Of a DNA stretch of 64,000 bases, positions 4,324 through 50,797 are shown piece after piece. A program made the translations under genes and the position numbers. The notes under the pieces were generated by a model. That model made no database searches, was not told the DNA's origin, and was given only the letters and a program-made list of their open reading frames with translations. The first letter of the stretch is position 1, and each line of letters begins with the position of its first letter. The stretch is from Escherichia virus TH57, in sequence record MT446422.1, one strand, 5' to 3'.

Positions 4324-4329
4324 AAAGGG

Positions 4330-4359
4330 GTGTACAAGCCCCTTTGAACGGTGTATCAT
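4330..4359 (+). promoter_or_regulatory. early (sigma-70 type) promoter
   Basis: -35 GTGTACA 4330-4336 (in the loop of the GGGG/CCCC hairpin 4327-4342), 17-nt spacer, -10 TATCAT 4354-4359. Leader CCATCAACTACTGATGAGGA. Confidence 0.6.
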
Positions 4360-4390
4360 TATCCCATCAACTACTGATGAGGAAAACAAA

Positions 4391-4573
4391 ATGGTTATTG
4401 AAGATAAAGAAATTAAACTTGACCATTATTATTCTGTAAATGGTTATCCTATACAAGTAACCAAAGTGACTGACCAAGATGTATGGTATCGTCCTTTGAA
4501 ATGGCCAGACGCTCCGTTGATGGTGTGCGACCGTAGCTTGTTCAATACAGTTGCGAAAGGACCTAAATTATGA
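4391..4573 (+). CDS. hypothetical protein (60 aa)
   Basis: ATG 4391 behind GAGGA of a conserved early leader (CCATCAACTACTGATGAGGA). The ORF-track start 4313 lies upstream of the promoter and is unlikely. Confidence 0.55.
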   Translation: MVIEDKEIKLDHYYSVNGYPIQVTKVTDQDVWYRPLKWPDAPLMVCDRSLFNTVAKGPKL

Positions 4574-4824
4574 GCCTGAAATTACACTCAATGAAAAATA
4601 TCATTACCCTTAATCTGGATGATGAGCGCCTGATTTTTCTCACCGTCACTGATAAGAATATTGAAATTGCAAATGGTCCTAAGACTTATTGTTGCCCAGT
4701 GAAGAATTGGAAACATGTAACCTTTTTGACCCTGGGTGAACGCCTGAAAGACCTTAAGTTGGATTTGGATGTCAAAGATATCCAGTACATTAAAAATCTT
4801 ATTGGATACAAACTGTTGAGGTAA
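4570..4824 (+). CDS. hypothetical protein (84 aa)
   Basis: ORF track. ATGA overlap. Confidence 0.55.
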   Translation: MSLKLHSMKNIITLNLDDERLIFLTVTDKNIEIANGPKTYCCPVKNWKHVTFLTLGERLKDLKLDLDVKDIQYIKNLIGYKLLR

Positions 4825-4826
4825 CT

Positions 4827-5120
4827 ATGGGTAAAACTATCCGTCGTAAAGAATTGTCTGTAAAAGATTTTTATTATTCCGGACGTCGTAAAGCACCAGA
4901 CGGTGTAAGTCAGGAACAAGTTGAAGAAAATATTTTCCGTTCAGACAAATGGAAGCGTATGCGTGGCGTTGATTCAGAAGTCAAGAATGAAATGAATCGT
5001 CAACTGCGCAAAGAAGTTCGCCAGTTGAAAAAAGATGTATACGTTGAGGATGATTTTGATTATAATACTTCTCACCGTGTTGCAAAGCGTAAATCAAATG
5101 AATGTTATCGTTACAGTTGA
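4827..5120 (+). CDS. hypothetical basic protein (97 aa)
   Basis: ORF track. GAGG SD 5 nt upstream. Lys/Arg rich. Confidence 0.55.
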   Translation: MGKTIRRKELSVKDFYYSGRRKAPDGVSQEQVEENIFRSDKWKRMRGVDSEVKNEMNRQLRKEVRQLKKDVYVEDDFDYNTSHRVAKRKSNECYRYS

Positions 5121-5127
5121 GGAAAAT

Positions 5128-5259
5128 ATGAATATCAAACGTATGCTTTTTAAACAAGGGTTATACACTTTAAATTCTGCTCCAAAAGGCGATACAACCA
5201 AGTGGTCAGTAAATGACTGGATTGAATTTATTGATGAAAACGGTAACTGGAAAATTTAA
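5128..5259 (+). CDS. small hypothetical protein (43 aa)
   Basis: ATG 5128 behind GAGGAAAAT. The longer track ORF (5035) overlaps the previous gene in another frame. Confidence 0.45.
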   Translation: MNIKRMLFKQGLYTLNSAPKGDTTKWSVNDWIEFIDENGNWKI

Positions 5260-5457
5260 ATGAACCCTGAATCTAAATTATCACAGCGAATTGCTGAAGC
5301 TCGTCGCCAGTTTTTTGAAAATATGATAGCTCAAGGTATCGATGACGAAGTTTTTCTAAACTGGTTTTGGAATCACAAGTATTCAAGTTGTTCAGGAGCG
5401 ATATTCATATCAGCCGCAATGATGTATGAAGGCTGGAAAGCGGCTAAAGCGCAATAA
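5260..5457 (+). CDS. hypothetical protein (65 aa)
   Basis: ORF track. Starts immediately after the upstream stop. Confidence 0.5.
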   Translation: MNPESKLSQRIAEARRQFFENMIAQGIDDEVFLNWFWNHKYSSCSGAIFISAAMMYEGWKAAKAQ

Positions 5458-5472
5458 AAACCAACGGGGTCA

Positions 5473-5481
5473 TGGTATAAT
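5473..5481 (+). promoter_or_regulatory. extended -10 promoter candidate
   Basis: TGgTATAAT inside the hairpin GGGTCAT/ATGACCC (5467-5486), upstream of ORF 5530. Confidence 0.4.
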
Positions 5482-5529
5482 GACCCTAGGATAATAAAAT
5501 TTTAATTTAATGAGACTGAGGAATATATC

Positions 5530-9903: not shown

Positions 9904-11582
9904 AAACGTTTAAGCTTAAGAAAGTTATCTATAAAAATATTATGTCGGTTGGTGCTCAACCGATTACTGTTGAACTGGATAAAGTCCAGAAAACTCTTGT
10001 AACTGGCAAGAATGGCGCAGGGAAATCTACGTTCCTTGAAGCGGTTACCTTTGCTATGTTCGGTAAGCCTTTCCGTGATGTAAAGAAAGGTCAGCTGATT
10101 AACTCGAGCAACAAAAAAGATATGCTCGTTGAATTGTGGATGGAATATGATGGAAAAGAATACTATATCAAACGCGGGCAAAAACCCAATGTTTTTGAAA
10201 TCTCTTGTGGCGGTAAACGTCTTGATGAATCTGCCAGCAGTAAAGACTTCCAAGCGGAATTTGAACAGCTTATCGGAATGTCATACGCAAGCTTCAAACA
10301 AATTGTCGTACTCGGCACAGCTGGATATACCCCTTTTATGGGCCTATCCACTCCTGCCAGAAGAAAGCTTGTCGAAGACCTTTTAGAGGTTTCTGTACTG
10401 GCCGATATGGATAAGCTGAACAAATCTCTTATCCGCGAAGTCAATAGCCAAATCCAGGTGATGGATGTACAGCATGACGGTATCGTTCAACAGATTAAAA
10501 TCTATCAGGACAACGAAGACCGTCAAAGAAAATTGTCAGGCGATAATCTGTTGCGACTGCAAACGATGTATGATGAACTTGCCACAGAAGCACGTGGAAT
10601 CAAGGCAACTATCGAAGAAGCAACGACAAGACTGACCGAGATAATCTTGGGAGAAGACCCTGAGCACGAACTCACAAAGTTAAAGCAGGAATCATTCCTG
10701 ATTAAATCGAAGATTGACGATTATCGAAAGGTTGTTGGTCTGTACGAGAAAGGTGGTTGTTGTCAGACCTGTGCCAGTCAGTTGCATCCAGGAGACCCTA
10801 TTGTCGCCAGGATTGAGTCAAAGATTGAAGAATGTAATGCATCGGCTGATAAGCATAAAGCTCGCCAGAATGCTGTTCAGGAGCAATTTGATGCGTATAC
10901 CAAGGCAAGACAAAACCAGCGTACAATAGCTCAAGACATTCAAACTAAGAAACAAACCTTAGTCCAGACTGTCGAAAAAGCTAAAAAGGTTAAAGCATTA
11001 ATCGAGCAAGCCAAGTCAGAATTCATTGACCATGCAGCAGACATTAAAATGCTTCAAGACCAGCTTGATAAAATAGTCAAACAGAAATCTGACCTTGTGA
11101 TGGAAAAATATCAACGTGGTATCCTAACGGATATGTTGAAAGATTCTGGTATCAAGGGCGCGATTATTAAGAAATATATTCCTATCTTTAATAAGCAGAT
11201 AAACGCTTATCTTAAAGTTATGGAAGCTGATTATAGCTTTACGTTAGATGAAGAGTTCAACGAAACGATTAAATCTCGTGGACGTGAAGACTTTAGCTAT
11301 GCATCATTTAGCCAGGGTGAAAAAGCTCGTATAGATATTGCATTGCTGTTTACATGGCGCGATATTGCTGCGAAAGTATCTGGTGTTAATATTAACACAT
11401 TGATTCTGGATGAAGTTTTTGACTCGGCCACTGATGTAGAGGGTGTTAAAGCAATTGCTACCATCCTGAACAAATTGGAAGACACCAACATTTTTATTAT
11501 CAGTCACCGAGACCATGACCCGGAAGCATACGGGCAACATCTCCAGATGAAAAAAGTTGGTCGATTCACCGTTATGGAATAA
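9900..11582 (+). CDS. 46: Recombination/repair ATPase subunit gp46 (Rad50/SbcC-like)
   Basis: 560 aa, as in T4 gp46. Walker A GKNGAGKST, central coiled coil with a CCQTC zinc hook, signature SFSQGEKARIDIAL, Walker B LILDE. Confidence 0.95.
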   Translation: MKTFKLKKVIYKNIMSVGAQPITVELDKVQKTLVTGKNGAGKSTFLEAVTFAMFGKPFRDVKKGQLINSSNKKDMLVELWMEYDGKEYYIKRGQKPNVFEISCGGKRLDESASSKDFQAEFEQLIGMSYASFKQIVVLGTAGYTPFMGLSTPARRKLVEDLLEVSVLADMDKLNKSLIREVNSQIQVMDVQHDGIVQQIKIYQDNEDRQRKLSGDNLLRLQTMYDELATEARGIKATIEEATTRLTEIILGEDPEHELTKLKQESFLIKSKIDDYRKVVGLYEKGGCCQTCASQLHPGDPIVARIESKIEECNASADKHKARQNAVQEQFDAYTKARQNQRTIAQDIQTKKQTLVQTVEKAKKVKALIEQAKSEFIDHAADIKMLQDQLDKIVKQKSDLVMEKYQRGILTDMLKDSGIKGAIIKKYIPIFNKQINAYLKVMEADYSFTLDEEFNETIKSRGREDFSYASFSQGEKARIDIALLFTWRDIAAKVSGVNINTLILDEVFDSATDVEGVKAIATILNKLEDTNIFIISHRDHDPEAYGQHLQMKKVGRFTVME

Positions 11583-11606
11583 TGCTTTAAACAAGGATGT
11601 TATAAT
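11583..11606 (+). promoter_or_regulatory. MotA-dependent middle promoter
   Basis: TGCTTTA 11583-11589, 11-nt spacer, TATAAT 11601-11606. Confidence 0.6.
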
Positions 11607-11616
11607 AGAGGCTATT

Positions 11617-17960: not shown

Positions 17961-17990
17961 GTTTACAACGGCAAAGGACTGCCGTATGAT
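17961..17990 (+). promoter_or_regulatory. early promoter (imm unit)
   Basis: GTTTACA 17961-17967, 17-nt spacer, TATGAT 17985-17990. Leader CCATCAACTGATGA is related to the conserved leader family. Confidence 0.55.
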
Positions 17991-18027
17991 TACTCCATCA
18001 ACTGATGAATAACTTAAGGATATTAAA

Positions 18028-18270
18028 ATGGAAACATTAATTGCGGGTACTGTTGTTCTGGGTGCTGGCTCTTTCTTCCTGGCTGCACTGGCATATTTTC
18101 TGCCGTGGATTATCGCACTACTGCGAGGAACCAAAAGTAATTGCGGAATCTTCTTTGTTAACCTCCTGTTAGGTTGGACAATGGTCGGATGGTTTATTGC
18201 ATTTATCTGGGCACTCGTTGCTGAGCGTAAATCAAACGCACAAGTAATTATCATCAAGGAAACCAAATGA
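18028..18270 (+). CDS. imm: Superinfection immunity protein Imm
   Basis: 80 aa, two TM segments. YFLPWIIALLRG...NLLLGWTMVGWFIAFIWAL fits the Imm_superinfect family signature. Directly downstream of 43, as T4 imm. Confidence 0.75.
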   Translation: METLIAGTVVLGAGSFFLAALAYFLPWIIALLRGTKSNCGIFFVNLLLGWTMVGWFIAFIWALVAERKSNAQVIIIKETK

Positions 18271-18924: not shown

Positions 18925-18931
18925 CATTAAT

Positions 18932-21946: not shown

Positions 21947-21958
21947 AATATTTTAAAA

Positions 21959-21978
21959 GGGGCTTACAGCCCCTTTTT
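21959..21978 (+). terminator. rho-independent terminator after gene 41
   Basis: GGGGC-TTACA-GCCCC plus T5. Confidence 0.75.
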
Positions 21979-21991
21979 CTTATGTTATAAT
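21962..21991 (+). promoter_or_regulatory. early promoter overlapping the terminator (PeSL-like)
   Basis: -35 GCTTACA is the terminator loop, 17-nt spacer, TATAAT 21986-21991. Leader CCTATCAACTACTGGAGAATAAA-ATG. Confidence 0.65.
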
Positions 21992-22017
21992 GACCCTATC
22001 AACTACTGGAGAATAAA

Positions 22018-22335
22018 ATGAAAACTATTGATTGCAAAGCGGAATACAAAGTTTATTATCATGGCTCAAGCTCTAATGCTGGAATCCAAAATATGCTTTG
22101 CCCTCCTGATGCAACTGGTGTTCTGTCAGAAGTTGGGCGCAAGAAAAATTTAGGGCGTGTGTTTTTTACTGAAGATATTGGTTTGGCCCGTATCTATGCA
22201 GGAAGAGCAGCTCGCTCGTATGGAGGAGAACCCCGTCTTTATCGTGTGATTGCACCTGTTGACGTGGTTTGTTTAAATGATACTAAAGGTGCTACAGTTT
22301 ATCACGCTGACTGGGCCTTCTGTGAGGAAATCTAA
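22018..22335 (+). CDS. truncated ADP-ribosyltransferase-fold protein (Mod/Arr-like mini-ART)
   Basis: 105 aa. YYHGS...(29 aa)...GRVFFTEDIGLARIYAG parallels LYRGV...(22 aa)...GRITSFTEDYGIARDFAA of the Mod-type ART at 29063 in this window, with Arg->His and Ser->Phe at motif positions. Ends before the ExE region. Has its own early promoter. Confidence 0.45.
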   Translation: MKTIDCKAEYKVYYHGSSSNAGIQNMLCPPDATGVLSEVGRKKNLGRVFFTEDIGLARIYAGRAARSYGGEPRLYRVIAPVDVVCLNDTKGATVYHADWAFCEEI

Positions 22336-22890: not shown

Positions 22891-22920
22891 GTGTACAACA
22901 AAGGGATAATGCTGTATATT
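22891..22920 (+). promoter_or_regulatory. early promoter (sp unit)
   Basis: GTGTACA 22891-22897, 17-nt spacer, TATATT 22915-22920. Hairpin GGGATAAT/ATTATCCC 22903-22925 spans the -10. Confidence 0.6.
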
Positions 22921-22948
22921 ATCCCTATCAACTACTGAGGAGATTGAA

Positions 22949-23242
22949 ATGAAAAAGTTATTAATTGCAGCAATTCTTACCGTAGCATCATGTGGTACAG
23001 CTCCAGTTACTGCTGGGCTTGATAAAGACCTTTGTGAGTGGTCTATGACCGCTGACCAGACTGATGTTGAACATCAGATTTATGCTGATATCATGAACAT
23101 AACTAAACGTGACCGTCCTGATATGGTTAAAGAAGTGTCTGACCAACTGGCTTCTGGTGACGTTATGCAGTATAACTATGTTCTGTATTGCGATGCTTCA
23201 TTCGACAACAGCAAAATTGTTCAATGGGTTACAGGTGAATAA
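22949..23242 (+). CDS. sp: Spackle (periplasmic inhibitor of gp5 lysozyme; superinfection exclusion)
   Basis: 97 aa, as in T4 Sp. Signal peptide. DKDLCEWSMTADQTDVE...VMQYNYVLYCD matches recalled T4 61.3. Confidence 0.8.
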   Translation: MKKLLIAAILTVASCGTAPVTAGLDKDLCEWSMTADQTDVEHQIYADIMNITKRDRPDMVKEVSDQLASGDVMQYNYVLYCDASFDNSKIVQWVTGE

Positions 23243-28776: not shown

Positions 28777-29006
28777 ACTGGTTAACAAATATCCCCACAT
28801 CGGCACTGGATATCGACCGTAAACATGCTCATAAGGAAATTGAGCAACAAAAAATTAATCGTTTACAAAGGCTTAAGACTGAATCCGAGACAATTAAAGT
28901 CAAACGCCCGACAGAATCGAAAAGTTCTTACTCATCATATCAATCTCCGATTGGCATGGCCGTAGACATTGCAGTCTTTGGCACCCCACTTGGAGTATTT
29001 AAGTAG
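28773..29006 (+). CDS. hypothetical protein (77 aa) with SSYSSY motif and hydrophobic C-terminus
   Basis: ATG 28773 (ATGA overlap). ...TESKSSYSSYQSPIGMAVDIAVFGTPLGVFK. Confidence 0.5.
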   Translation: MNWLTNIPTSALDIDRKHAHKEIEQQKINRLQRLKTESETIKVKRPTESKSSYSSYQSPIGMAVDIAVFGTPLGVFK

Positions 29007-29035
29007 TTTACTTACTCCCCTCCTAATGACATAAT
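29006..29035 (+). promoter_or_regulatory. early promoter (modB unit)
   Basis: GTTTACT 29006-29012, 17-nt spacer, CATAAT 29030-29035. Confidence 0.5.
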
Positions 29036-29062
29036 GGTCTTTCTTACAACAGAGAGGCCATT

Positions 29063-29623
29063 ATGAACATCATCAAATCTGATACCGAACCCAACCAGTT
29101 AAAATTTAGTGAAATGGAGATAGCTTCATTATTTGAGTGCCGTACAGCAAAGGTTGATAAGACCTTGCATTCAAATGTCAACTCAATCATCAAGTCAAGG
29201 TTATCTATACCCGATACAGTCTTGTATCGTGGGGTAACCCAGCAAGAGATTGATTTATTAGATGAAGCAAAAGAATCAATGCAACCTTTTGAATTTGGAA
29301 GGATAACCTCCTTTACAGAAGACTATGGTATTGCCAGGGATTTTGCTGCAATGGAATATGTATCAAGGACTATCATCAGATTGAATCATACAAAAGCTTT
29401 TTGTTACCATGATGCGATGCGCAAAATTGCGCTTGATGTTCCACTGGAATTCTTCAATACTGCTTCTGGTTCCGAACAGGCGGCAACGTTAAGACGTGAA
29501 GAATATATGGACATGATTGATTCTGAGCTTGAATGGTTTGTTCCAGCTGACCAGAAATTCGTGATAGTTGATGCTGGATTTGTTGGTGATTATTATGTTC
29601 TTGACTGTGTACAAGAGCAATAA
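29063..29623 (+). CDS. modB: ADP-ribosyltransferase, Mod family (T4 modB position)
   Basis: 186 aa. R-S-E triad context: LYRGV, ITSFTEDYGIARDFA, SELEWFVP. First of a tandem pair upstream of srd, as T4 modB-modA. Confidence 0.7.
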   Translation: MNIIKSDTEPNQLKFSEMEIASLFECRTAKVDKTLHSNVNSIIKSRLSIPDTVLYRGVTQQEIDLLDEAKESMQPFEFGRITSFTEDYGIARDFAAMEYVSRTIIRLNHTKAFCYHDAMRKIALDVPLEFFNTASGSEQAATLRREEYMDMIDSELEWFVPADQKFVIVDAGFVGDYYVLDCVQEQ

Positions 29624-29636
29624 GACACGTTAATAT
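29607..29636 (+). promoter_or_regulatory. early promoter inside the 3' end of the first mod gene
   Basis: GTGTACA 29607-29613, 17-nt spacer, TAATAT 29631-29636. Leader CCTATCAACTACTGATGAGGA. Confidence 0.55.
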
Positions 29637-29667
29637 GTTCCTATCAACTACTGATGAGGATAATAAA

Positions 29668-30282
29668 ATGCTGTACACTGATGATGTTTTGAATGGAATT
29701 ATTGACACTGCTGCTTCTAGTGAGTCTTTTCGTGACCAATGTCAAGCGGAGATTGATGCTCTTTATACAGATGAAGAGCAATCGGTACTCTGGCAGTGTA
29801 TGGAAAATAAACCCGACTTGATTCAAGAAGACTTAACCAGGATTATCCGCAACAATCTGAATACTGCACCGCCTGCGGCATTGTTCCGTGGTATATCAAA
29901 GAAAACTATGGAATACCTGGAAGATTTAAGATATGTTGGTGCGACAATTGAGTTCAACCGTGTAATGAGTTTTTCCAGGGACTGGCAGGTTGCAAGAAAT
30001 TTTGCATCATACAGTTTCTATGGCACAAGGAACATTTTCTGTATAAACAATGCACCATATGCGTATAACTATCAGGAAGCAATCTTCAAAATGATTTGCG
30101 GTGCTCCTCCTGAAGAGTTCAATGGTGCATATCCAGAAGCAACCAGGAAGTCAAACTTGCACCTGGTTAATGATGAAGATGAGTTTATGTTTCCCGCTGG
30201 GACTACGCTCCGCGTAGACTTGATTGAAACACACCCATTGAATAACCTGTATACTGTTTGGCATTTAACTGTTTTGAACTAA
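29668..30282 (+). CDS. modA: ADP-ribosyltransferase, Mod family (T4 modA position)
   Basis: 204 aa from ATG 29668 (behind the conserved leader GATGAGGATAATAAA). LFRGIS, VMSFSRDWQVARNFA, EDEFMFPAG (ExE). Confidence 0.7.
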   Translation: MLYTDDVLNGIIDTAASSESFRDQCQAEIDALYTDEEQSVLWQCMENKPDLIQEDLTRIIRNNLNTAPPAALFRGISKKTMEYLEDLRYVGATIEFNRVMSFSRDWQVARNFASYSFYGTRNIFCINNAPYAYNYQEAIFKMICGAPPEEFNGAYPEATRKSNLHLVNDEDEFMFPAGTTLRVDLIETHPLNNLYTVWHLTVLN

Positions 30283-30341: not shown

Positions 30342-30370
30342 GTGTACATAAAAGATGAATAGTATATAAT
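30342..30370 (+). promoter_or_regulatory. early promoter (srd unit)
   Basis: GTGTACA 30342-30348, 16-nt spacer, TATAAT 30365-30370. Leader GATTCCGTACTGAGTTA. Confidence 0.6.
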
Positions 30371-30415
30371 GATTCCGTACTGAGTTATTCACGTCCGTAA
30401 GATGAGAAAAATATC

Positions 30416-31162
30416 ATGACTTTATCAAAAACCAAAACACTGAAAGTTAAACGTCGTCTGGAACACACTCAAGCTTCTGCTAAACGTCGTGGTAAGGACT
30501 TTAACCTGGATTTCAATTACCTGGTTAACATTCTTGACCAAAAAGTTTGTGCTTATTCTGGTGAAGCATTTAATAACTCTGTTGAAGACGAGAAGTTATC
30601 ATTAGAACGTTTTAACAATGATATTGGTTATATCAAGGGTAATGTTATTCCTGTTAAAAAGAAATACAACACCATGCGTTCTGATTGGTCCCTGGATGAG
30701 CTTAAACAACGTCGTGATGATGTTGCTGTAAAAATTGCTCGCCCGTCCGCCAAGAAGATTGAAAAGTTAAATCTGACTTCAGAGAAATGGGAACAGATTA
30801 AAAAGGCATATAACCATATAAAGAACATTCAGCACAAACGTGAGAATCGCGTTAAGCATTATGCTCAAATGAGTAAATCAGAACAGTCCAAAGAAAACCA
30901 ATTAAAAATGGTTGCTTTGAAGGCTCGCATTGATGGTTCCCGTGTTGCGGAAGGTCATGAGCTTACTAAATTGAATGTTTTGCTCAAAGGCAATGACTGG
31001 AAAGTTACCAAGAAATTAACTGATGCTGAAACGCTTTTTGATTGCTATGATAAAATCATTCAAGGTCTTGAGCGTTTTGAGAAGATTGGTTTTATTGGTA
31101 AATTAAAACTGAAACGTGGTTTGCCTTTGAACGCGTCAATTTTTAAACTGATTAGAGGTTAA
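30416..31162 (+). CDS. srd: Srd-position protein (248 aa)
   Basis: Position between mod and dda and a size like T4 srd. The N-terminal part looks HNH/EndoVII-like (CAYSG...ERFNNDIGYIKGNVIPV). Assignment mainly positional. Confidence 0.5.
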   Translation: MTLSKTKTLKVKRRLEHTQASAKRRGKDFNLDFNYLVNILDQKVCAYSGEAFNNSVEDEKLSLERFNNDIGYIKGNVIPVKKKYNTMRSDWSLDELKQRRDDVAVKIARPSAKKIEKLNLTSEKWEQIKKAYNHIKNIQHKRENRVKHYAQMSKSEQSKENQLKMVALKARIDGSRVAEGHELTKLNVLLKGNDWKVTKKLTDAETLFDCYDKIIQGLERFEKIGFIGKLKLKRGLPLNASIFKLIRG

Positions 31163-33742: not shown

Positions 33743-33772
33743 GTGTACAAGGCCAATAGAAAGAGACATAAT
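33743..33772 (+). promoter_or_regulatory. early promoter
   Basis: GTGTACA 33743-33749, 17-nt spacer, CATAAT 33767-33772. Leader CTCATCAACTACTGATGAGGA. Confidence 0.6.
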
Positions 33773-33803
33773 CATCTCATCAACTACTGATGAGGATAAC
33801 AAA

Positions 33804-34061
33804 ATGATTACTTCTTTTGAAATTGGCCAACAATATGAAATGTCTGCTCTTCAAGCTGCTGAAGCAGGTCTGACTAAAGCGTTTGAATGTGCATTTGCAA
33901 ATATTCGTGGTAAAATCTTTACTGTCAATAAAATTGCGGTATATGATAAAGAAACAGACATGAACAAAGGCATCTACCTGAACGTGTCAAATGCAAAAGG
34001 CCGTCGTGAAATTATGGTTGTACAACCTAATCAACTGGCGATGTTCAATAAGGTTGCATAA
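33804..34061 (+). CDS. hypothetical protein (85 aa), one copy of an ~80-aa repeat module
   Basis: ORF track. FEIGQQYEM...GKIFTVNK...EIMVVQPNQL parallels two modules in the next ORF. Confidence 0.55.
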   Translation: MITSFEIGQQYEMSALQAAEAGLTKAFECAFANIRGKIFTVNKIAVYDKETDMNKGIYLNVSNAKGRREIMVVQPNQLAMFNKVA

Positions 34062-34821: not shown

Positions 34822-34851
34822 GTGTACAAACTCTTGGGGTCGGAGTATAAT
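34822..34851 (+). promoter_or_regulatory. early promoter (motB-like unit)
   Basis: GTGTACA 34822-34828, 17-nt spacer, TATAAT 34846-34851 inside the hairpin GGGGTC/GACCCC 34836-34857. Confidence 0.6.
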
Positions 34852-34893
34852 GACCCCACTGGAGAATAAACTTATTAACCAAGAGAGAAAATT

Positions 34894-35385
34894 ATGAAAG
34901 TTGAAGCTGGTGATATTGTACGTGTTTCTAAAGAATCTCGTTCCAAAGCTGCTGGTCGTTTTGTTGAGGTTGTGGGTCTTCGCACTAATTTAGCAGGTGG
35001 AATTAAAGAAGTTAAAGTGCGCATCATTCCTAAAAATGGTCAGACTGAAACTCAATTGGCTTATGTGCATCCTAAATTCCTGGAATCAACCGAATTTACT
35101 GGGTACATCGCTCCTGTGGCCGAAGAAGTTGAAACTATTGACCAGTCTCATGTTGGGGTTGATTTTAAATGGAAATTGGGCAAAGGTGTCTTTTTTGTTT
35201 CACCTAAACCGTTTGAATATAATTGTCAGTATGGTCCGACTTATGAAACCACTAGCATGTCTGGTTATATCACAGACCAATGGGTTGAAGAAGGTGTCAA
35301 ACTGTATAATATCGTGTTCCTTGGAACCTTTAAGGTTGTTCCTGAGAGCTTTATTGTCGAGTATGCTGATATTCATTTTGCCTAA
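34894..35385 (+). CDS. motB: MotB-like DNA-binding protein candidate
   Basis: 163 aa (T4 MotB is 162 aa). KOW-like N-terminus GDIVRVSKESRSKAAGRFVEVVG. Position downstream of dexA, as in T4. Confidence 0.5.
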   Translation: MKVEAGDIVRVSKESRSKAAGRFVEVVGLRTNLAGGIKEVKVRIIPKNGQTETQLAYVHPKFLESTEFTGYIAPVAEEVETIDQSHVGVDFKWKLGKGVFFVSPKPFEYNCQYGPTYETTSMSGYITDQWVEEGVKLYNIVFLGTFKVVPESFIVEYADIHFA

Positions 35386-36457: not shown

Positions 36458-36475
36458 GGCCTTCGGGCCTTTTTG
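36457..36475 (+). terminator. rho-independent terminator
   Basis: AGGCC-TTCG-GGCCT plus T-run. Confidence 0.75.
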
Positions 36476-38551: not shown

Positions 38552-38575
38552 GGTCTCCTTCGGGAGACCTTTTTA
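38552..38575 (+). terminator. rho-independent terminator
   Basis: GGTCTCC-TTCG-GGAGACC plus T5. Confidence 0.8.
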
Positions 38576-38577
38576 TT

Positions 38578-38607
38578 ATGTACAAGCCACAAAAATTGTG
38601 TTAAGAT
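38578..38607 (+). promoter_or_regulatory. early promoter (rIIA unit)
   Basis: ATGTACA 38578-38584, 17-nt spacer, TAAGAT 38602-38607. Confidence 0.5.
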
Positions 38608-38624
38608 GTCTTTGAGGTGAAAAT

Positions 38625-38909
38625 ATGATTATGTCTGACGGAAGTTTAGTTAATCTGCAAAATGTTGCACGGTGTATTATGGAAGCAGGTCTAAGGAAGG
38701 TGCAGGGGCTCCCAGATAACGACAGGAAGCGAAGTTACTTGTTAGCTGTAAGAACAACAGCCATGAGCATTAAGGCTGGCCAGAAGGTCCCTGAGGAGCG
38801 AATTGAAGCACTCCTTGCATTGATATACCATGACCAAGAACATAAAGCTACCATGCGTAGTATGAGAAAAATATTACAGGAGATTGGAAATGACGAACTT
38901 CAAAGTTAA
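38625..38909 (+). CDS. hypothetical protein (94 aa)
   Basis: ORF track. GAGGTGAAAAT-ATG. Downstream of early promoter 38578-38607. Confidence 0.55.
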   Translation: MIMSDGSLVNLQNVARCIMEAGLRKVQGLPDNDRKRSYLLAVRTTAMSIKAGQKVPEERIEALLALIYHDQEHKATMRSMRKILQEIGNDELQS

Positions 38910-42311: not shown

Positions 42312-42318
42312 ATGAATC

Positions 42319-42332
42319 GGGGCTTCGGCCCC
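42319..42332 (+). other. GC hairpin after rIIB (no U-run)
   Basis: GGGGC-TTCG-GCCCC. Confidence 0.5.
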
Positions 42333-42344
42333 TAATGAGGCTTT

Positions 42345-42815: not shown

Positions 42816-43392
42816 AACATGGGAGCATCTGAAAAAGATGCCCTCCTTTCTTTATACAAAGGAAGACTTAACACCTGAATCCCTACAAAAGATTGTAGAC
42901 ACGGCCAGGTATTCATTGCGTAAAGACCCAGGTCAAGACCGTGAGCAAGTCATGCAAAGATGTATGGTGGCTACAATGGCAGAACAAGCTATTGCTAAAT
43001 GGACCTCCGGCTTTTTATGCGGCGGTGATGAAGATTACGATAATCCTTATTCCTTTGCATTTGATGTAGTTTCGAAGGAAGGGGTAAGAATCGAAGTCAA
43101 GACCCACCAGTCTGGTTCCAAATGGATATCCGTGCATACTGGTAGTCAGGGCGATTATCCACATGGTTACGGGATTAATCTTGGTCCTTTTATGCAACAC
43201 AAGCTTGCTGACCTTATGATTATGTTTAATGTAAAAGAGACTATCAAAGGTTATAGATTTAAACCAAAATTCCTTGCTGGGCCTGGGGCTTTTGTTCCTG
43301 AGTCCGGTCTTGTGCAGAAGTCACAAGGGGATGGCTGGTACCTCCGTTCTTGTTCAGAAGAAAAATTCCCCTATCACCGGTTTACAAGCTGA
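42799..43392 (+). CDS. denB: PD-(D/E)xK-like nuclease candidate; positional equivalent of denB (endonuclease IV)
   Basis: 197 aa (T4 DenB 185 aa) between rIIB and ndd. FAFDVVSKEGVRIEVKT looks like a D...ExK nuclease motif. Not confirmed by alignment. Confidence 0.4.
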   Translation: MIQKSKTWEHLKKMPSFLYTKEDLTPESLQKIVDTARYSLRKDPGQDREQVMQRCMVATMAEQAIAKWTSGFLCGGDEDYDNPYSFAFDVVSKEGVRIEVKTHQSGSKWISVHTGSQGDYPHGYGINLGPFMQHKLADLMIMFNVKETIKGYRFKPKFLAGPGAFVPESGLVQKSQGDGWYLRSCSEEKFPYHRFTS

Positions 43393-43404
43393 ACCAACCA
43401 TGTA

Positions 43405-43438
43405 ATAATGTCCTCACACCAACAAATGAGGACATTAT
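43405..43438 (+). promoter_or_regulatory. 12-bp hairpin sequestering the SD of ORF 43440
   Basis: ATAATGTCCTCA 43405-43416 pairs perfectly with TGAGGACATTAT 43427-43438, 10-nt loop. SD GAGGA 43428-43432. ATG 43440. Confidence 0.65.
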
Positions 43439-43439
43439 C

Positions 43440-43715
43440 ATGGACCACGTTACTACTCACAACATTAAACAAATTCTTATTCAAGCACTCAAAAACAACA
43501 ACATCAATTTTCCAACCCATGAAATTTTTGATGTGGTATTCAACGAAGTCCAGGGTCAAGTTGCATATTATGACGTTATCGTTTATCTTTCAGAATTTGA
43601 AGTCTACCACCTGACTGAAATCGCTTTCTATCTCTATCGTGGAACAGCAGATTTTACTGGTGTCGTGAATGCAGTTGGCGCATATAAAGAAGTTAAAGAA
43701 CAAATGCACAATTAA
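43440..43715 (+). CDS. hypothetical protein (91 aa) with hairpin-sequestered SD
   Basis: ATG 43440. Its SD GAGGA (43428-43432) lies in the 3' arm of a 12-bp hairpin. Confidence 0.5.
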   Translation: MDHVTTHNIKQILIQALKNNNINFPTHEIFDVVFNEVQGQVAYYDVIVYLSEFEVYHLTEIAFYLYRGTADFTGVVNAVGAYKEVKEQMHN

Positions 43716-43725: not shown

Positions 43726-43755
43726 GTGTACATCAGTATGGAGTCTATGTATAAT
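43726..43755 (+). promoter_or_regulatory. early promoter
   Basis: GTGTACA 43726-43732, 17-nt spacer, TATAAT 43750-43755. Leader GATTCCATACTGAGTTA. Confidence 0.65.
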
Positions 43756-43789
43756 GATTCCATACTGAGTTACCAAACTGGAGAATAAA

Positions 43790-43945
43790 ATGAAACCTGC
43801 TCAATATGCAATGACTTTATACCTTGAAGTTAATGGCGATATTACTGAATTTTTTAAATTAATGCAACAGCGTGGAAAAAGTTTTGCAGTTACTGAGCGT
43901 CAATTTTACGCTTGCCGTAAAAATACATACAATCGTTATGCATGA
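43790..43945 (+). CDS. small hypothetical protein (51 aa)
   Basis: Below the track cutoff. GGAGAATAAA-ATG conserved leader. MKPAQYAMTLYLEVNGDITEFFKLMQQRGKSFAVTERQFYACRKNTYNRYA. Confidence 0.5.
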   Translation: MKPAQYAMTLYLEVNGDITEFFKLMQQRGKSFAVTERQFYACRKNTYNRYA

Positions 43946-44312: not shown

Positions 44313-44341
44313 GTGTACATCTCCGGTGGTTGTAGTATAAT
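44313..44341 (+). promoter_or_regulatory. early promoter
   Basis: GTGTACA 44313-44319, 16-nt spacer, TATAAT 44336-44341. Leader CCTATCAACTACTGGAG. Confidence 0.6.
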
Positions 44342-44367
44342 GAACCTATCAACTACTGGAGATGATT

Positions 44368-44484
44368 ATGAAAAAGTTACTTAAAGCCATTTGGAACATG
44401 TTTGTATTGTTTGTTGTCCTGAGCATTTTCCCAATTGTTTTTATGATTGACCATGTGCGCGTTTACTTTAACTATTTCTTTTGA
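44368..44484 (+). CDS. small membrane peptide (38 aa)
   Basis: Below the track cutoff. Conserved leader ...ACTACTGGAGATGATT-ATG. MKKLLKAIWNMFVLFVVLSIFPIVFMIDHVRVYFNYFF. Confidence 0.45.
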   Translation: MKKLLKAIWNMFVLFVVLSIFPIVFMIDHVRVYFNYFF

Positions 44485-44958: not shown

Positions 44959-45300
44959 ATGTCTAAATTATTTTTTGGTAATGCCAATGTTATGTTCTTT
45001 AAGAACCTTAGTCTCCAAGATGCAGCTTTATGTAATCAAGGGCAGATTCCAGGGTTACATTTAAAAACTGTAATGAGCACAGATTTTGTTTTTGTTCAAG
45101 ACCCTGATACAGGTTTTTACAGATTTATTAAATTCCGTATGTGCATGGACCCCGACTATCGCAATGCTTACTATGTAAGTTATGAAAATGTTATTAAAGA
45201 ATTACGTAATACCTATGGATATGCTTTGATAAACCTGAATAAGGTGTATAACGCTACTTGTTACACCCCCGAATTTATTTTAGAACAACTTCAAAAATAG
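44959..45300 (+). CDS. hypothetical protein (113 aa)
   Basis: ORF track. GAGGAAATCATT-ATG. Confidence 0.55.
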   Translation: MSKLFFGNANVMFFKNLSLQDAALCNQGQIPGLHLKTVMSTDFVFVQDPDTGFYRFIKFRMCMDPDYRNAYYVSYENVIKELRNTYGYALINLNKVYNATCYTPEFILEQLQK

Positions 45301-45329
45301 TGTACAAACTCATGGGGTCAGAGTATAAT
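45300..45329 (+). promoter_or_regulatory. early promoter (ndd unit)
   Basis: GTGTACA 45300-45306, 17-nt spacer, TATAAT 45324-45329 inside the hairpin GGGGTC/GACCCC 45314-45335. Confidence 0.65.
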
Positions 45330-45373
45330 GACCCCACTGGAGCACAAAACTTTAACTTACTGAGGAAATTAAT

Positions 45374-45823
45374 ATGACTACTTACATGACCCGTCGTGAC
45401 GTACTGAATGCTGGCGCTACCACTGTTGCTCACATCCATAATGGCAATTATGTTGTAGGGCGTCCAACTAAAGAAGCTATCACCCAACCAGGTTTTTATT
45501 TCGTGGTTAAAGGTGAAGGCGAATCACGTATTGTTGCTGCACGTTTTTACGTTGGTAACCAACGTTCACAACAAGGGTTTGACACTGTATTAAGTCACAT
45601 CCGCAAACAGCGTTCACAACTGTCGCGCACAATGGCGAACAATGGTGTTATCTATGAAGTCCTGTTTGTTCCAGTTTCTAAAATGAAACCTTTGACAACT
45701 GGTTATGGTAAAGGTCAAATTGCGATGGCGTTCACACGCTCACATAGTTCTGATTGTCAGACCCTTTCAGAAATGAATCGCATGCTTGCTGATAACTTTA
45801 AATTCATTTTGCAGAGCTATTAA
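45374..45823 (+). CDS. ndd: Nucleoid disruption protein Ndd
   Basis: 149 aa. [31 protein letters not shown]...[20 protein letters not shown]...[16 protein letters not shown] matches recalled T4 Ndd. Confidence 0.88.
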
Positions 45824-47589: not shown

Positions 47590-47684
47590 GTTTTGGAGTT
47601 GAGTTTGCATTGCTTTGTATTTTCGCGGCAATCGCGGGTGTGATTGTTGGTATGTTTATTGGTAATAAGATAGATAAAGACTAG
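47586..47684 (+). CDS. small membrane peptide (32 aa)
   Basis: Below the track cutoff. ATGA overlap with the gene 52 stop. MSFGVEFALLCIFAAIAGVIVGMFIGNKIDKD. A terminator follows. Confidence 0.4.
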   Translation: MSFGVEFALLCIFAAIAGVIVGMFIGNKIDKD

Positions 47685-47706
47685 GGCCCTTCGGGGTCCT
47701 TTTTTA
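47683..47706 (+). terminator. rho-independent terminator after the gene 52 unit
   Basis: AGGGCCC-TTCG-GGGTCCT (one G-U pair) plus T6. Confidence 0.75.
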
Positions 47707-47718
47707 TTTTAAAAAGTA

Positions 47719-47748
47719 GTGTACAAGTCCCTTGACCCGATGCATAAT
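47719..47748 (+). promoter_or_regulatory. early promoter (motA unit)
   Basis: GTGTACA 47719-47725, 17-nt spacer, CATAAT 47743-47748. Leader GATTCCATACTGAGTTA. Confidence 0.6.
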
Positions 47749-47797
47749 GATTCCATACTGAGTTACACACTGAATCATAAAAATTTTGGAGAATAAA

Positions 47798-48013
47798 ATG
47801 TTTACTGCACAACAGAATGAAGGTCAAGAATACATCAACGCCAAATTCAAATCTAACAAAGAAGCTTGTTATTACTACTTTGACATGTTCAAACTGGCAA
47901 ACTCTAAAGAAGAACGTAAACAAGCGATTGATGTTATTGTTTCTACTTCCCATATGAAACGTACTGTGGTACAATCATATGCATCAAATTATATGAAATC
48001 TATTAAGGGATAA
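47798..48013 (+). CDS. hypothetical protein (71 aa), position of T4 motA.1
   Basis: ATG behind the GGAGAATAAA leader of early promoter 47719-47748. Confidence 0.55.
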   Translation: MFTAQQNEGQEYINAKFKSNKEACYYYFDMFKLANSKEERKQAIDVIVSTSHMKRTVVQSYASNYMKSIKG

Positions 48014-48624: not shown

Positions 48625-48634
48625 GGAAATTGTT

Positions 48635-48811
48635 ATGAACATCTATCTGATTAAGTACCTAAAAGATGGTAAAGAACGTGATTACCAAATCCCCGCAAAA
48701 AATGAATATGATGCGTGTGTTCGCCTTGGTCAGATTCATGGTGATGACCGTGAATATCGCAATGATGTTGAAATTGAAATCCAATCTGTAACTTTGAAAG
48801 TGAGAGGCTAA
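48635..48811 (+). CDS. small hypothetical protein (58 aa)
   Basis: Below the track cutoff. GAGGAAATTGTT-ATG. MNIYLIKYLKDGKERDYQIPAKNEYDACVRLGQIHGDDREYRNDVEIEIQSVTLKVRG. Confidence 0.5.
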   Translation: MNIYLIKYLKDGKERDYQIPAKNEYDACVRLGQIHGDDREYRNDVEIEIQSVTLKVRG

Positions 48812-48813
48812 TC

Positions 48814-49146
48814 ATGAATAAGCTGAATATTGTTAATGAATTGCGTGCTTGCGTAGAACCTACTCAAGAGGGTTGGGATGTTTGGTATCATGGCGCTTAC
48901 CTTGGGACTATTGTCAAGGTCAAAGCTGGTCAGTATCTTATTCACCGCCAGGATGATGCAACAGCACCGTTTGGCGTCCGCAAGAACTTCATGGCAGCGA
49001 TTGGCGCCTTTGTTCCAGCAGCATATGAAGTCTATAAAGCTGACTATAAGGAATACCAGGAATCACAACCAGTTATTCGCTCAATTGGTGTCAATAAAGC
49101 TCAACAGAAAAGTCTGTGGCAACGTGTTAAAGGTTGGTTCAAATGA
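48814..49146 (+). CDS. hypothetical protein (110 aa)
   Basis: ORF track. GAGAGG SD. Confidence 0.55.
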   Translation: MNKLNIVNELRACVEPTQEGWDVWYHGAYLGTIVKVKAGQYLIHRQDDATAPFGVRKNFMAAIGAFVPAAYEVYKADYKEYQESQPVIRSIGVNKAQQKSLWQRVKGWFK

Positions 49147-49481
49147 TTCCTATGGAGCTAAATTGGGATGGCGAAGGTCATTCCCTTAAATTGATTGAAG
49201 AGCAACGTAACGCTTGGGATGAGCGTTGTGCCCTGGTGAATGGTATTAAGGTAATTTATAACCTTCATCTCCAAATTGATAATATTCCTCTTGAGTTTGG
49301 TATGCAGTTATCACGTTTTCTTGAGATTATTACTATAGAAAAAGTATCCATAACTTCATTTGGTGTATGTCAAACAGTTGATATCAAATTGGCTTCTTCT
49401 GATAAAGGCGAGTTGATTGGTATTGGTGATAAAATTCATGAATTCGTGAAATATAATGGTTATAAGGTGATTATCAAATGA
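49143..49481 (+). CDS. hypothetical protein (112 aa)
   Basis: ATG 49143 (ATGA overlap). The track start is 49134. Confidence 0.5.
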
Positions 49482-49966
49482 ATCCATTAAAAGGTAAAGA
49501 ATTATCTTTTAAAGACCGTATGGCTTTATTGGATAAAGCTCTTTCTCGTGAGACACCTGAAAGTCTAGCGGCTAAATTACAGGCATCCGGTGACTATACA
49601 GAATATACAGAAGAAGATGTTTTAGAAGAAGTCCCAGAAATCTGTTGGCAGATTGCTCATTGGAACAACAATGAAAAATATCAGCGACGAATTGTATGCG
49701 CTGCCAACCGCTTTAGATTAAAAGATGGCGGGACTTTGGTTATTCCTGGCGCCAGACATTATTCAAAAGATATGGCAGAAGTGCTTGACCAGGTAAGTGA
49801 TAAACTTGTATCAGACCATGTTTGTGGTGATAATCAAGGATTCATTGACCAATACAGCAATTACTGGACCCGTGAAGAAGCAATGATTATTGCGACTTAT
49901 GCAAATCAAGTGCGTATTGAACGTGGTGGTAGTGAAAAAGAACTTTACTCTGAGGACCTTTACTAA
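49478..49966 (+). CDS. hypothetical protein (162 aa)
   Basis: ORF track. ATGA overlap. Confidence 0.6.
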
Positions 49967-50247
49967 TGAATCTTAAACAACTCCAGATTGATGCAATCGA
50001 AGCCCATATTAACCATATTAAACGTCTGAATGTTATGCTGGAAGACAACTGGGGAACTTATGTCAACCAACCGGCCTGGGATGCATTAGACCATGAATAT
50101 ATAAAGAATATTAGTTCCAAGACAATTCATGGAAATATGGAAGGCCTAAAGCCATTCTTGCGTGATATGTATATTGCTACTAATAAAGAAATTATTGGCT
50201 CTTTGGAATATCAATTAAGGAAATTGCATGAACAATCTGGTAGCTAA
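49966..50247 (+). CDS. hypothetical protein (93 aa)
   Basis: ORF track. TAATG overlap. Confidence 0.55.
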   Translation: MNLKQLQIDAIEAHINHIKRLNVMLEDNWGTYVNQPAWDALDHEYIKNISSKTIHGNMEGLKPFLRDMYIATNKEIIGSLEYQLRKLHEQSGS

Positions 50248-50347
50248 ACACGATTTCAATAAGGCATCTGTCCATAAGGACAAGAAGAAAAATTTTAAAG
50301 AGTCCAATCGCAAACAGAAACATAAGGGTAAAGGCTATGATTACTAA
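50228..50347 (+). CDS. small very basic peptide (39 aa)
   Basis: Below the track cutoff. MNNLVAKHDFNKASVHKDKKKNFKESNRKQKHKGKGYDY. Overlaps both neighbours. Confidence 0.35.
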   Translation: MNNLVAKHDFNKASVHKDKKKNFKESNRKQKHKGKGYDY

Positions 50348-50627
50348 ACTCCATACATATCAAGCAACTGAATTGGTTATTCTTATTGATGAGCTTTTTA
50401 AAATCCATGCTTCAGTTCCAGCCGAAATCTATGCAGAAATTCTTTGTGATTTGGATAGCAGCTTTGGCTATATTCAACCGGAATATACAATTAGATTCTC
50501 TAGTGAACGACCTGGCTACGCTAAAGTGGTTTTTGGTCCTGGATTAGATGAAGAACAAGTATTAAGAGAAATTCAAGAAGAAATTGATGATTTTGGTTTA
50601 GAAGATTACATCGAGGAATCACTATGA
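50337..50627 (+). CDS. arn: acidic protein (96 aa); positional candidate for Arn (anti-McrBC DNA mimic)
   Basis: Strongly acidic (EEQVLREIQEEIDDFGLEDYIEESL). Size near T4 Arn (92 aa) and located between motA and asiA. Sequence identity not verified. Confidence 0.4.
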   Translation: MITKLHTYQATELVILIDELFKIHASVPAEIYAEILCDLDSSFGYIQPEYTIRFSSERPGYAKVVFGPGLDEEQVLREIQEEIDDFGLEDYIEESL

Positions 50628-50788
50628 GTCATAACTTAGAGAACACCATCACTGGCCAACGTACACACGAATCGACTTGCTTTGATGAATTCCTGGGAGC
50701 CGATTTTAAGTTCCAGGAACCAGTTGAACAGATGTATCAGGAATATGTTGTACAGATGGAAAATCATGTGTACAACCCAGAGGAATAA
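50624..50788 (+). CDS. small hypothetical protein (54 aa), position of T4 asiA.1
   Basis: Below the track cutoff. ATGA overlap. MSHNLENTITGQRTHESTCFDEFLGADFKFQEPVEQMYQEYVVQMENHVYNPEE. Confidence 0.45.
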   Translation: MSHNLENTITGQRTHESTCFDEFLGADFKFQEPVEQMYQEYVVQMENHVYNPEE

Positions 50789-50797
50789 TAGTACAAT
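50768..50797 (+). promoter_or_regulatory. early promoter (asiA)
   Basis: GTGTACA 50768-50774, 17-nt spacer, TACAAT 50792-50797. Confidence 0.5.

Follow-up and report, generated by a model that had tools for sequence, protein, structure and literature searches.

Promoter, stem-loop and leader cassettes in the early region of Escherichia virus TH57, a T4-like phage

The early region and its promoter sites

A 64,000-nucleotide stretch of Escherichia virus TH57 (MT446422.1), referred to in its full length as the window, carries a family of cassettes in which a promoter, often with a stem-loop, is followed by a short leader and the start of a gene. These elements are classed as T4-type early promoters of promoter-early stem-loop (PeSL) architecture and are of a known kind. 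The window has a G+C content of 39.9% and is closest to the Gaprivervirus genomes TH54, SP18, VR20, VR7, MN01 and P8 (92-98% identity). This resemblance places it in a T4-like Gaprivervirus near SP18, VR20 and TH54. The + strand carries, in order, nrdD ... gp46, gp45, gp44, gp62, regA, gp43, imm, uvsX, gp40, gp41, dmd, sp, gp61, gp56, soc, modB, modA, srd, dda, dexA, motB, gp39, rIIA, rIIB, denB, ndd, gp52, motA and asiA, and the late genes t, 38, 37, 36, 35 and 34 follow asiA on the - strand. The + strand is therefore the T4 early-transcription strand.

A preliminary description of the window had listed 15 promoter sites, and all of them are found where they were placed, with the -35, spacer and -10 given for each. 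A relaxed pattern, [AG][TC][GT]TAC[AT]-N15-18-TANNNT, matches 17 times on the + strand and twice on the - strand, against about 4.8 matches expected per strand from Markov simulations. GTGTACA alone is weakly over-represented (13 against 6.7 expected), and it is the combined motif that stands out. The whole genome of TH54, the closest relative, was assembled, and 39 intergenic early-promoter-like sites were listed in it. A weight matrix was trained on 24 TH54 promoters only, all outside the region homologous to the window. With this matrix, 14 of the 15 listed sites are the 14 best + strand matches in the window (17.6-41.1 bits), and the remaining positions on either strand score 14.7 bits or less. 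The runners-up are at 43380 (14.7 bits) and 5037 (14.3 bits, intragenic), and the best - strand match scores 12.3 bits. All 15 sites lie on the + strand at gene junctions and are oriented with the downstream gene; these genes include imm, sp, modB, modA, srd, motB, ndd, motA and asiA. An Rfam search of the window gave no match.

The cassettes have a common anatomy. An A-rich, UP-like tract of the AAAAAGTA type lies upstream; in the window set and the TH54 set alike, its information is highest at -7 to -3 relative to the -35. The common -35 is G(T/G)(T/G)TAC(A/T), the spacer is 16 to 17 bp and the -10 is (T/C)ATAAT. Two bases after the -10 a pyrimidine run begins (consensus GAYCCC), with an A at position 7 as the predicted start and often ACTGR shortly after it. 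The discriminator and start, GAYCCCAT, are informative over all 39 TH54 promoters. The leader is 11 to 43 nt long, and the element ends at its 3' side in a Shine-Dalgarno (SD) sequence and the ATG with which a host-takeover gene begins. Phage T5 PN25 and rrnB P1 presumably have a similar discriminator and similar first transcribed bases, a likeness that is not used as evidence here. A likely MotA-dependent middle promoter for uvsX at 18931-18956 (TTGCTCTAA, 12 nt, TATAAT) has the discriminator TATCCTATC, the same as that of the early promoters. This suggests that the consensus after the -10 is a polymerase-related feature and not only a relic of the cassettes.

Three leader families had been proposed, and each is present in the window. 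Family A, ATCAACTACTG, has six exact copies, each 6 to 8 nt past a -10; with one mismatch allowed there are seven matches against 1.07 expected. Family B, GATTCCRTACTGAGTTA, has three copies and family C, GACCCCACTGGAG, has two. Mean pairwise identity among the cassettes is 0.44 in the first 17 nt after the -10 and 0.30 in the spacer between -35 and -10. In a check named beforehand, the leader similarity persisted (0.44 against 0.30 for the spacer) with the promoter hexamers and SD masked. Two statements of the preliminary description were too broad. Where it had many leaders ending in GGAGAATAAA-ATG, three cassettes do so (GGAGAATAAAATG) and two more have GGATAAYAAAATG. Its claim that the cassettes flank most non-core open reading frames (ORFs) is wrong: about 102 + strand genes share 15 cassettes, and each cassette is separated from the next by 1 to 27 genes (median 4). 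The cassettes are as follows; bits refer to the TH54 matrix.

Cassette 1, 4324..4393, + strand: before a 55.6-like ORF (ATG 4391), 35.0 bits, leader family A; hairpin AAAGGGG-TGTACAAG-CCCCTTT at 4324-4345 with the -35 (4330-4336) in its loop; -10 at 4354-4359, predicted +1 at A4366.
Cassette 2, 17961..18030, + strand: gp43/imm junction (ATG 18028), -35 GTTTACA, -10 TATGAT, 23.7 bits; CGGCA/TGCCG stem in the spacer; degenerate family A leader (ATCAACTGATGA); T4 counterpart 27080, imm.1.
Cassette 3, 21955..22020, + strand: after gp41 (ATG 22018), -10 at 21986-21991, leader family A; hairpin AAAAGGGGC-TTACA-GCCCCTTTT at 21955-21977, like a bidirectional terminator and enclosing the -35 (z -2.7); RegB-type GGAGAATAAAA at 22008-22018; recombination hotspot; T4 counterpart 20612, after gene 41.
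Cassette 4, 22891..22951, + strand: before sp (spackle, ATG 22949), leader family A with GAGGAG; stem GGGATAAT/ATTATCCC at 22903-22925 bracketing the -10; the T4 sp promoter at 20109 has the same AACTACTGAGGAGATT leader.
Cassette 5, 29006..29065, + strand: before modB (ATG 29063), -35 GTTTACT within a GGAGTA...TACTCC stem (~28992-29018), -10 CATAAT, 24.2 bits; leader outside all families; T4 counterpart 13186, modB.
Cassette 6, 29607..29670, + strand: before modA (ATG 29668), -35 in the last modB codons, 20.5 bits, leader family A; RegB-type GGATAATAAAA at 29658-29668; T4 counterpart not found.
Cassette 7, 30342..30418, + strand: before srd (ATG 30416), 35.5 bits, leader family B (GATTCCGTACTGAGTTA); the T4 srd promoter at 11851 has the 3' part of the leader in common.
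Cassette 8, 33743..33806, + strand: after dexA (ATG 33804), 33.2 bits, leader family A; hairpin CUCAUCA-acuac-UGAUGAG at the 5' end of the leader; RegB-type GGATAACAAAA at 33794-33804; T4 counterpart 8218, after dexA.
Cassette 9, 34822..34896, + strand: before motB (ATG 34894), leader family C; stem GGGGTC/GACCCC bracketing the -10, with an extension that pairs CUCU with the leader GGAG; GGAGAATAAAC at 34861, one mismatch from the RegB consensus and not the SD; T4 motB promoter 7215 with stem GGGACC/GGTCCC.
Cassette 10 (weak), 38552..38627, + strand: ATGTACA...TAAGAT at 38578-38607 (ATG 38625), preceded by the intrinsic terminator GGTCTCCTTCGGGAGACC-TTTTT at 38552-38569; T4 counterpart 2458, rIIA.1.
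Cassette 11, 43726..43792, + strand: two genes after denB (ATG 43790), leader family B; 13-bp stem at 43733-43768 in which the spacer pairs with leader B and brackets the -10 (z -4.8); RegB-type GGAGAATAAAA at 43780-43790; indel breakpoint at the ATG; T4 counterpart 167086.
Cassette 12, 44313..44370, + strand: before an ndd.4-like ORF (ATG 44368), leader family A; 16-bp stem at 44320-44362 in which the spacer pairs with the entire leader A including the GGAG SD (z -4.25); T4 counterpart 166807, ndd.4.
Cassette 13, 45300..45376, + strand: before ndd (ATG 45374), leader family C with GGAGCACAAAA, 92% identical to cassette 9 over 51 nt; stem GGGGTC/GACCCC bracketing the -10 (z -4.2).
Cassette 14, 47683..47800, + strand: before a motA.1-like ORF and motA (ATG 47798), 41.1 bits, leader family B; intrinsic terminator at 47683-47700, then the promoter at 47719-47748; RegB-type GGAGAATAAAA at 47788-47798; the T4 motA promoter at 163673 has a family A leader instead.
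Cassette 15, 50768..50849, + strand: before asiA (ATG 50847), -35 in the end of the preceding ORF, -10 TACAAT, 17.6 bits; leader beginning ACTGAATAA; stem z -2.7; T4 counterpart 161211, asiA.
Possible 16th cassette, absent from the first list, 43380..43442, + strand: GTTTACA-N17-AATAAT, 14.7 bits, leader ACACCAACAAATGAGGA, ATG 43440; conserved in TH54.

A half cassette at 5455-5499 consists of a GGGTCA-tggTATAA-TGACCC hairpin with TATAAT in and around its loop and no -35 of the GTGTACA type. It is like family C, and a RegB-type GGATAATAAAA comes after it (5489-5499). The element may represent a promoter that has degraded or one that belongs to another class.

Leader families, RegB-type sites and stem-loops

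The three leader families differ in their distribution. A 41-nt query for family A matches 716 phage records. The leader occurs before trna.4 in T4 and RB51, before cef in Klebsiella phage KpV477 and after denB in Serratia phage PS2; in T4 it also precedes imm.1, ndd.6 and motA, with a shortened form before sp. There are about 10 copies per Gaprivervirus genome, against 1 to 3 detectable by BLAST in the T-evens. Family B has 11 to 14 copies per Gaprivervirus genome and is sporadic elsewhere; in Morganella phage MP1 it was annotated as a promoter by that phage's authors. Family C, with two or three copies per genome, shares homology with the promoter region of T4 motB. The families had been taken to be specific to this genome. 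That does not hold for A, which is found across the Tevenvirinae, or for C, given its homology to T4 motB, and B is mostly restricted to the genus. No relevant paper came up in a literature search for the leader sequence.

The leader ends resemble the sites of an early mRNA endonuclease target. According to passages of a review (PMC3014915) that summarises Durand et al. 2006, the strong RegB/S1 site has the consensus GG*AGRAYARAA, with GGAG or GGAU, and lies in early translation-initiation regions; the same passages state that secondary structure blocks RegB. The leader ends GGAGAATAAAA and GGATAAYAAAA fit this consensus, and roughly half of the units have GGAG or GGAU with an A-rich run after it as their SD region. 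Exact matches to GGAKRAYARAA number seven in the window against 0.77 expected, all on the + strand, and five of them lie in cassette leaders (22008, 29658, 33794, 43780 and 47788). The two family C leaders carry versions with one mismatch at 34861 and 45339, neither of which is the SD. The TH54 genome has a gene for a RegB homologue (60% identity, E = 1e-53), which lies outside the region corresponding to the window. The leader ends are thus probable RegB-type sites, at which cleavage would be expected.

Stem-loops are present at most of the promoters. The four hairpins named in the preliminary description (21959, 22903, 34836 and 45314) are all there, and two further ones lie at 43733-43768 (z about -4.8) and 44320-44362 (z about -4.3). 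The stem is over the -35 at 4330, 21962 and 29006, in the spacer at 17961, over the -10 at 22891, 34822, 43726, 44313, 45300 and 50768, and upstream of the promoter at 38578 and 47719. One kind of stem is the canonical terminator, of which there are three or four (21955-21977, 38552-38569, 47683-47700 and possibly 4324-4345); a T-run follows the stem only at 21955, 38552, 47683 and possibly 4324. The second kind brackets the -10, with the 3' part of the spacer pairing with the discriminator and the first transcribed bases. It is strong in the window at 22891, 34822, 43726, 44313 and 45300 (z down to -4.8). Because its 5' arm is upstream of where transcription is predicted to begin, it can form in read-through RNA alone.

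The pairing that brackets the -10 is a property of many promoters. In the 39 TH54 promoters, the pairing of each spacer with its own discriminator has a mean of -7.0 kcal/mol, where mismatched pairs average -4.5; the observed mean was not attained in any of 5000 permutations. Strong stems occur in about 15 of the 39 (about 40%) and represent at least 10 different stem sequences, such as GGGATA/TATCCC, GGGACC/GGTCCC, GGGAAC/GTTCCC, GTAGG/CCTAC and GGTACAGGT/ACCTGTACC. That stem sequences differ between promoters indicates covariation. The stem of the motB promoter, GGGGTC/GACCCC here and GGGACC/GGTCCC in T4, shows two compensatory double changes. T4 has the own-pairing effect as well (18 of 10000 permutations), with a 10-bp stem around the -10 of ipI, and so does another T4-like lineage, in which some loci are redundant. 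Besides this phage, T4, Morganella phage MP1 and that other lineage have inverted repeats bracketing the -10. Sense-strand folds are more stable than antisense folds (26 against 14, p = 0.012), which points to RNA-level pairing that uses G-U.

Three other roles for these stems were considered and set aside. By established knowledge, stems of 6 to 16 bp are too short for RNase III sites. A dimeric protein operator around the -10 does not agree with stem sequences that vary among promoters. DNA cruciforms are unlikely with short stems and loops of 10-14 nt, and the sense-strand G-U bias favours RNA.

Conservation in place and gene exchange

The cassettes are largely fixed in position. All 15 lie at orthologous junctions in 10 full-length relatives, with cassette identities of 0.82-1.0 in nearly all cases. 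The exception is the cassette at 21962, which is 0.76 identical in TH54 and has a different promoter half; in a few other cases the downstream gene differs and the lookup failed. About 50 kb of T4 was fetched, and its early strand was scanned for GTTTAC-N16-18-TAnnnT with an AT-rich upstream tract, SD and ATG. For 12 of the 15 cassettes, T4 has an early-promoter-like site with a homologous leader at the corresponding junction. Conservation in place in 10 relatives and, for these 12, in T4 therefore argues that the cassettes are old, vertically inherited immediate-early promoters.

The same anatomy fits the published definition of the PeSL class, to which the elements had been assigned. Passages of PMC2839356 (Arbiol et al. 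2010) and PMC4122927 (Comeau et al. 2014) describe an A-rich upstream tract, sigma-70-type -35 and -10 boxes, a stem-loop, SD and ATG. By that definition the stem-loop is stable and takes one of five positions relative to the promoter; it can overlap either box, lie in the interval separating them or be found just upstream. Terminator or attenuator activity of the stem-loop, a promoter that is strong in vivo and circles arising through exchange between cassettes also belong to the published class. These elements had been proposed to mediate the shuffling of genes. The window was aligned to 13 relatives, 10 covering about 3.3-51.5 kb and three partial; an IMG/VR search with gp61 and rIIB gave three close ones (VR20, VR25 and VR26), and the rest came from a phage collection. 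The alignment contains about 40 clusters of insertion, deletion or replacement events, with 66 distinct breakpoint positions, 52 of them at gene junctions. Breakpoints fall at 3 of the 15 cassette junctions and at 34 of the 86 other junctions (odds ratio 0.38, p = 0.24). Five of the 66 breakpoints are inside cassette intervals, which make up 3.6% of the sequence (binomial p = 0.09). Overall, the preferential association of PeSL elements with insertions and deletions (indels) between close relatives is not seen among these 13. Shuffling through cassettes thus holds at one site, the hotspot after gp41, and not as a general mechanism.

That hotspot is well marked. At the junction after gp41 (21946-21993), the relatives have at least five alleles, with 0, 1 or 2 extra units of cassette plus ORF. 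In MN01 an extra ORF lies between two hairpin cassettes with the -35 in the loop, of the type AAAGGGG(T/C)(G/T)TACA(A)GCCCCTT, and the window's arrangement looks as if a deletion had produced it by crossover within the AAAGGGG arm. TH54 differs in the promoter half and is homologous again from 21980, a position internal to the cassette. Near two other cassettes there are breakpoints as well: 6 to 10 nt upstream of the -35 for the one at 22891, and at the ATG for the one at 43726. The PeSL mechanism is real here but local, and the cassettes are not where most gene shuffling takes place. Typical single-gene indels join microhomologies of 6-9 nt at ribosome-binding-site/ATG regions, and two events are homing-endonuclease insertions (11580 and 25670).

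Several further observations concern gene exchange. The insertion after gp46 (11580-11626) is a 773-bp homing-endonuclease gene present in PSD2001, MN01 and P8 and absent from the window. The insertion after gp61 (25670) is a 741-bp homing-endonuclease gene of P8, likewise absent from the window. It adjoins the gap between gp61 and gp56 (25677-26066, about 390 nt), which has no + strand gene, small - strand ORFs annotated in relatives and an 89-nt indel; the corresponding T4 interval holds dam and oriA. Gene-sized insertions in relatives also occur at two promoterless stem-loops. One, of about 395 bp, is at AAGGCCTTCGGGCCTT before gp39 (36446-36471), with a 14-nt junction repeat, and the other, of about 492 bp, is at GGGGCTTCGGCCCC after rIIB (42315-42345). 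Terminator hairpins without promoters may also be exchange points.

Function of the cassettes and comparison with known systems

The cassettes are very probably immediate-early promoters with short leaders of a T4-like phage, read by the unmodified host sigma-70 RNA polymerase. This reading builds on what is observed: the reality of the motif, its strand and position, the T4 orthology, the match to the RegB consensus, the covariation of the stems and the distribution of breakpoints. In the mechanism proposed, the host sigma-70 polymerase would read the units in the first minutes of infection, and the leader end of GGAG or GGAU with its A-rich run would be the target of RegB acting with ribosomal protein S1. 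Transcription coming in from upstream would be halted by the terminators just upstream of the -35 or enclosing it. Stems bracketing the -10 would fold in read-through RNA only and insulate the unit, a few of them also covering the SD or the RegB site. The sequence families would result from common descent together with selection on promoter strength, initially transcribed sequence and RegB sensitivity; cassettes also exchange sequence with one another occasionally.

The similarity could instead come mainly from recombination, with the cassettes acting as mobile PeSL modules that shuffle the ORFs they flank and are the main cause of differences in gene content. The cassettes are the largest dispersed direct-repeat families of the early region, and the alleles after gp41, with the MN01 ORF between homologous hairpins and a crossover in their arm, are what such modules would leave behind. 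So are the resumption of homology inside the TH54 cassette and the breakpoints near the -35 at 22891 and at the ATG of cassette 11. Chimeric leaders exist, such as GATTCC-ATCAACTACTG in TH54, the leader of the motA promoter is of family A in T4 and family B here, and leader A precedes non-orthologous genes in Jiaodavirus and Muldoonvirus. Nevertheless, we consider this explanation improbable. Breakpoints are found at 3 of 15 cassette junctions against 34 of 86 others, most single-gene indels use microhomology or homing endonucleases and not cassettes, and the cassettes stay at orthologous positions in the 10 relatives and largely in T4. Copies of the same family also have unrelated spacers, and are therefore not recent duplicates. 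At the other extreme, the resemblance might reflect chance matches or generic constraints on promoter hexamers and SD, with nothing else in common. Scans for generic sigma-70 promoters and for terminators show weak or no enrichment in the window, as this would predict. It is nonetheless scarcely credible, and is refuted by six exact 11-mers at a fixed offset from the -10 where about one is expected even with a mismatch, by the strict strand bias, by the separation of the sites from background with an independent matrix, by leader identity above spacer identity and by conservation across genera.

A further alternative concerns the stems rather than the promoters. The stems that bracket the -10 might be a switch that depends on the start site, as at the T4 genes e, soc, 49 and I-TevI: RNA started upstream would fold and hide the SD and/or the RegB site, and RNA from the embedded promoter, without the 5' arm, would be open. 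Such promoter-inside-hairpin control is documented for T4 in passages of PMC3014915, and the block of RegB by secondary structure described there suits the scheme. The 16-bp stem at 44313 covers the full leader including the GGAG SD, with the same layout in T4 at 8218 (TCCTC...GAGGA) and in L012 at 6949 (13 perfect base pairs), and an extended stem covers the leader GGAG at 34822 and 45300. Covariation and the sense-strand bias also fit. Against this, in most stem-bearing cassettes (22891, 43726 and most of TH54) the 3' arm stops 8 to 15 nt short of the SD, which is not occluded, and the difference between sense and antisense folds could partly reflect strand composition. The switch seems somewhat unlikely. 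A broader version, in which the covarying stem is a conserved Tevenvirinae RNA device and the fate of the message is set by its transcription start, is a less likely conjecture. If it were true, read-through RNA would fold and be shielded from RegB, ribosomes or 5'-end-dependent decay; RNA begun at the early promoter within the stem would stay unfolded, be translated and remain sensitive to RegB; and leader blocks A, B and C would be 3' arms of stems or remnants of them.

Several points weigh against the immediate-early promoter reading. A generic sigma-70 scan showed no enrichment in the window; scans of this kind and those for terminators are uninformative for the cassette family. The -35 GTGTACA is far from TTGACA, and its recognition is argued by analogy with T4. 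The site at 38578 (ATGTACA...TAAGAT) has a low matrix score and is a weak candidate; it is conserved in relatives and follows a terminator. The cassettes at 29607, 30342 and 33743 have no convincing promoter stem, and the stems that bracket the -10 lack a U-tract, which makes a terminator role doubtful for them. The conserved 5' blocks of leaders A and B are without demonstrated function. Finally, for this phage we infer promoter activity and strength, start sites, RegB cleavage and the role of the stems.

Some features of the window lie outside the cassettes. The rIIB protein (41337-42311) is 100% identical to that of VR20, and the gp43-gp41 block, whose DNA identity to VR20 is only about 96%, is nearest to TH54; by these affinities the genome is a mosaic within the genus. 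The topoisomerase large subunit (36521-38353) is a single ORF of 610 aa, a fused gp39 and gp60 without the split and bypass region of T4 gene 60. A tandem duplication of 40 nt in perfect register, 98% identical, at 32976-33055 takes in the last part of the upstream ORF together with dexA's ribosome-binding site and start.

The analysis provides a predicted transcription-unit map for the early region of a Gaprivervirus, with 15 or 16 early promoters, three or four terminators and likely RegB sites. Members of this genus are found in phage-therapy collections and are poorly annotated. It also tests the PeSL model in a fourth T4-like lineage, where cassettes can mediate indels at one clear hotspot and most gene gain and loss occurs at ordinary junctions through microhomology or homing endonucleases. 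Leader A and the stems that bracket the -10 are common to T4 itself, and T4 genetics could therefore be applied directly to finding their role.

The cassettes can be compared with several known systems. They have the same composite structure and positional subclasses of stems as the PeSL elements of RB49/phi1, PST/T4 and nt-1/KVP40 described in passages of PMC2839356 and PMC4122927, including G-rich/C-rich stems with G-T pairs and one cassette-bounded indel hotspot with a crossover in a stem arm. Unlike those elements as described there, they show no overall enrichment of breakpoints in this genus, most of them head conserved early genes and not ORFans, and their promoter consensus is not the TTGACA of RB49. 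The RegB-type sites are like the T4 RegB/S1 sites in that five cassette leaders match 11 of 11 positions and two more miss by one, that they lie within early-gene translation-initiation regions and that the lineage has a regB homologue. They differ in that family C carries its GGAG at the 5' end of the leader, where it does not serve as the SD. As at the T4 genes e, soc, 49 and I-TevI, in the passages of PMC3014915, a promoter lies inside or next to the 5' arm, only transcripts started upstream form the stem, and the SD is covered by the stem at 44313. In contrast to those genes, the embedded promoter is early and not late, and most stems stop short of the SD.

The closest likeness in architecture is to the T4 early promoters, with sites at 12 of the 15 orthologous junctions. 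Leader A (ACAACTATCAACTACTGATAC...) stands before imm.1, ndd.6, motA and trna.4 in T4 and is shortened at sp, and T4 has stems bracketing the -10 at ipI, at motB and after gene 41. The differences are that the -35 in the window is mostly GTGTACA and not GTTTACA/T, that leader B (GATTCCRTACTGAGTTA, with its many copies per genome) is largely confined to the genus, that the window has an extra promoter before modA, and that the promoter halves differ at the junction after gp41.

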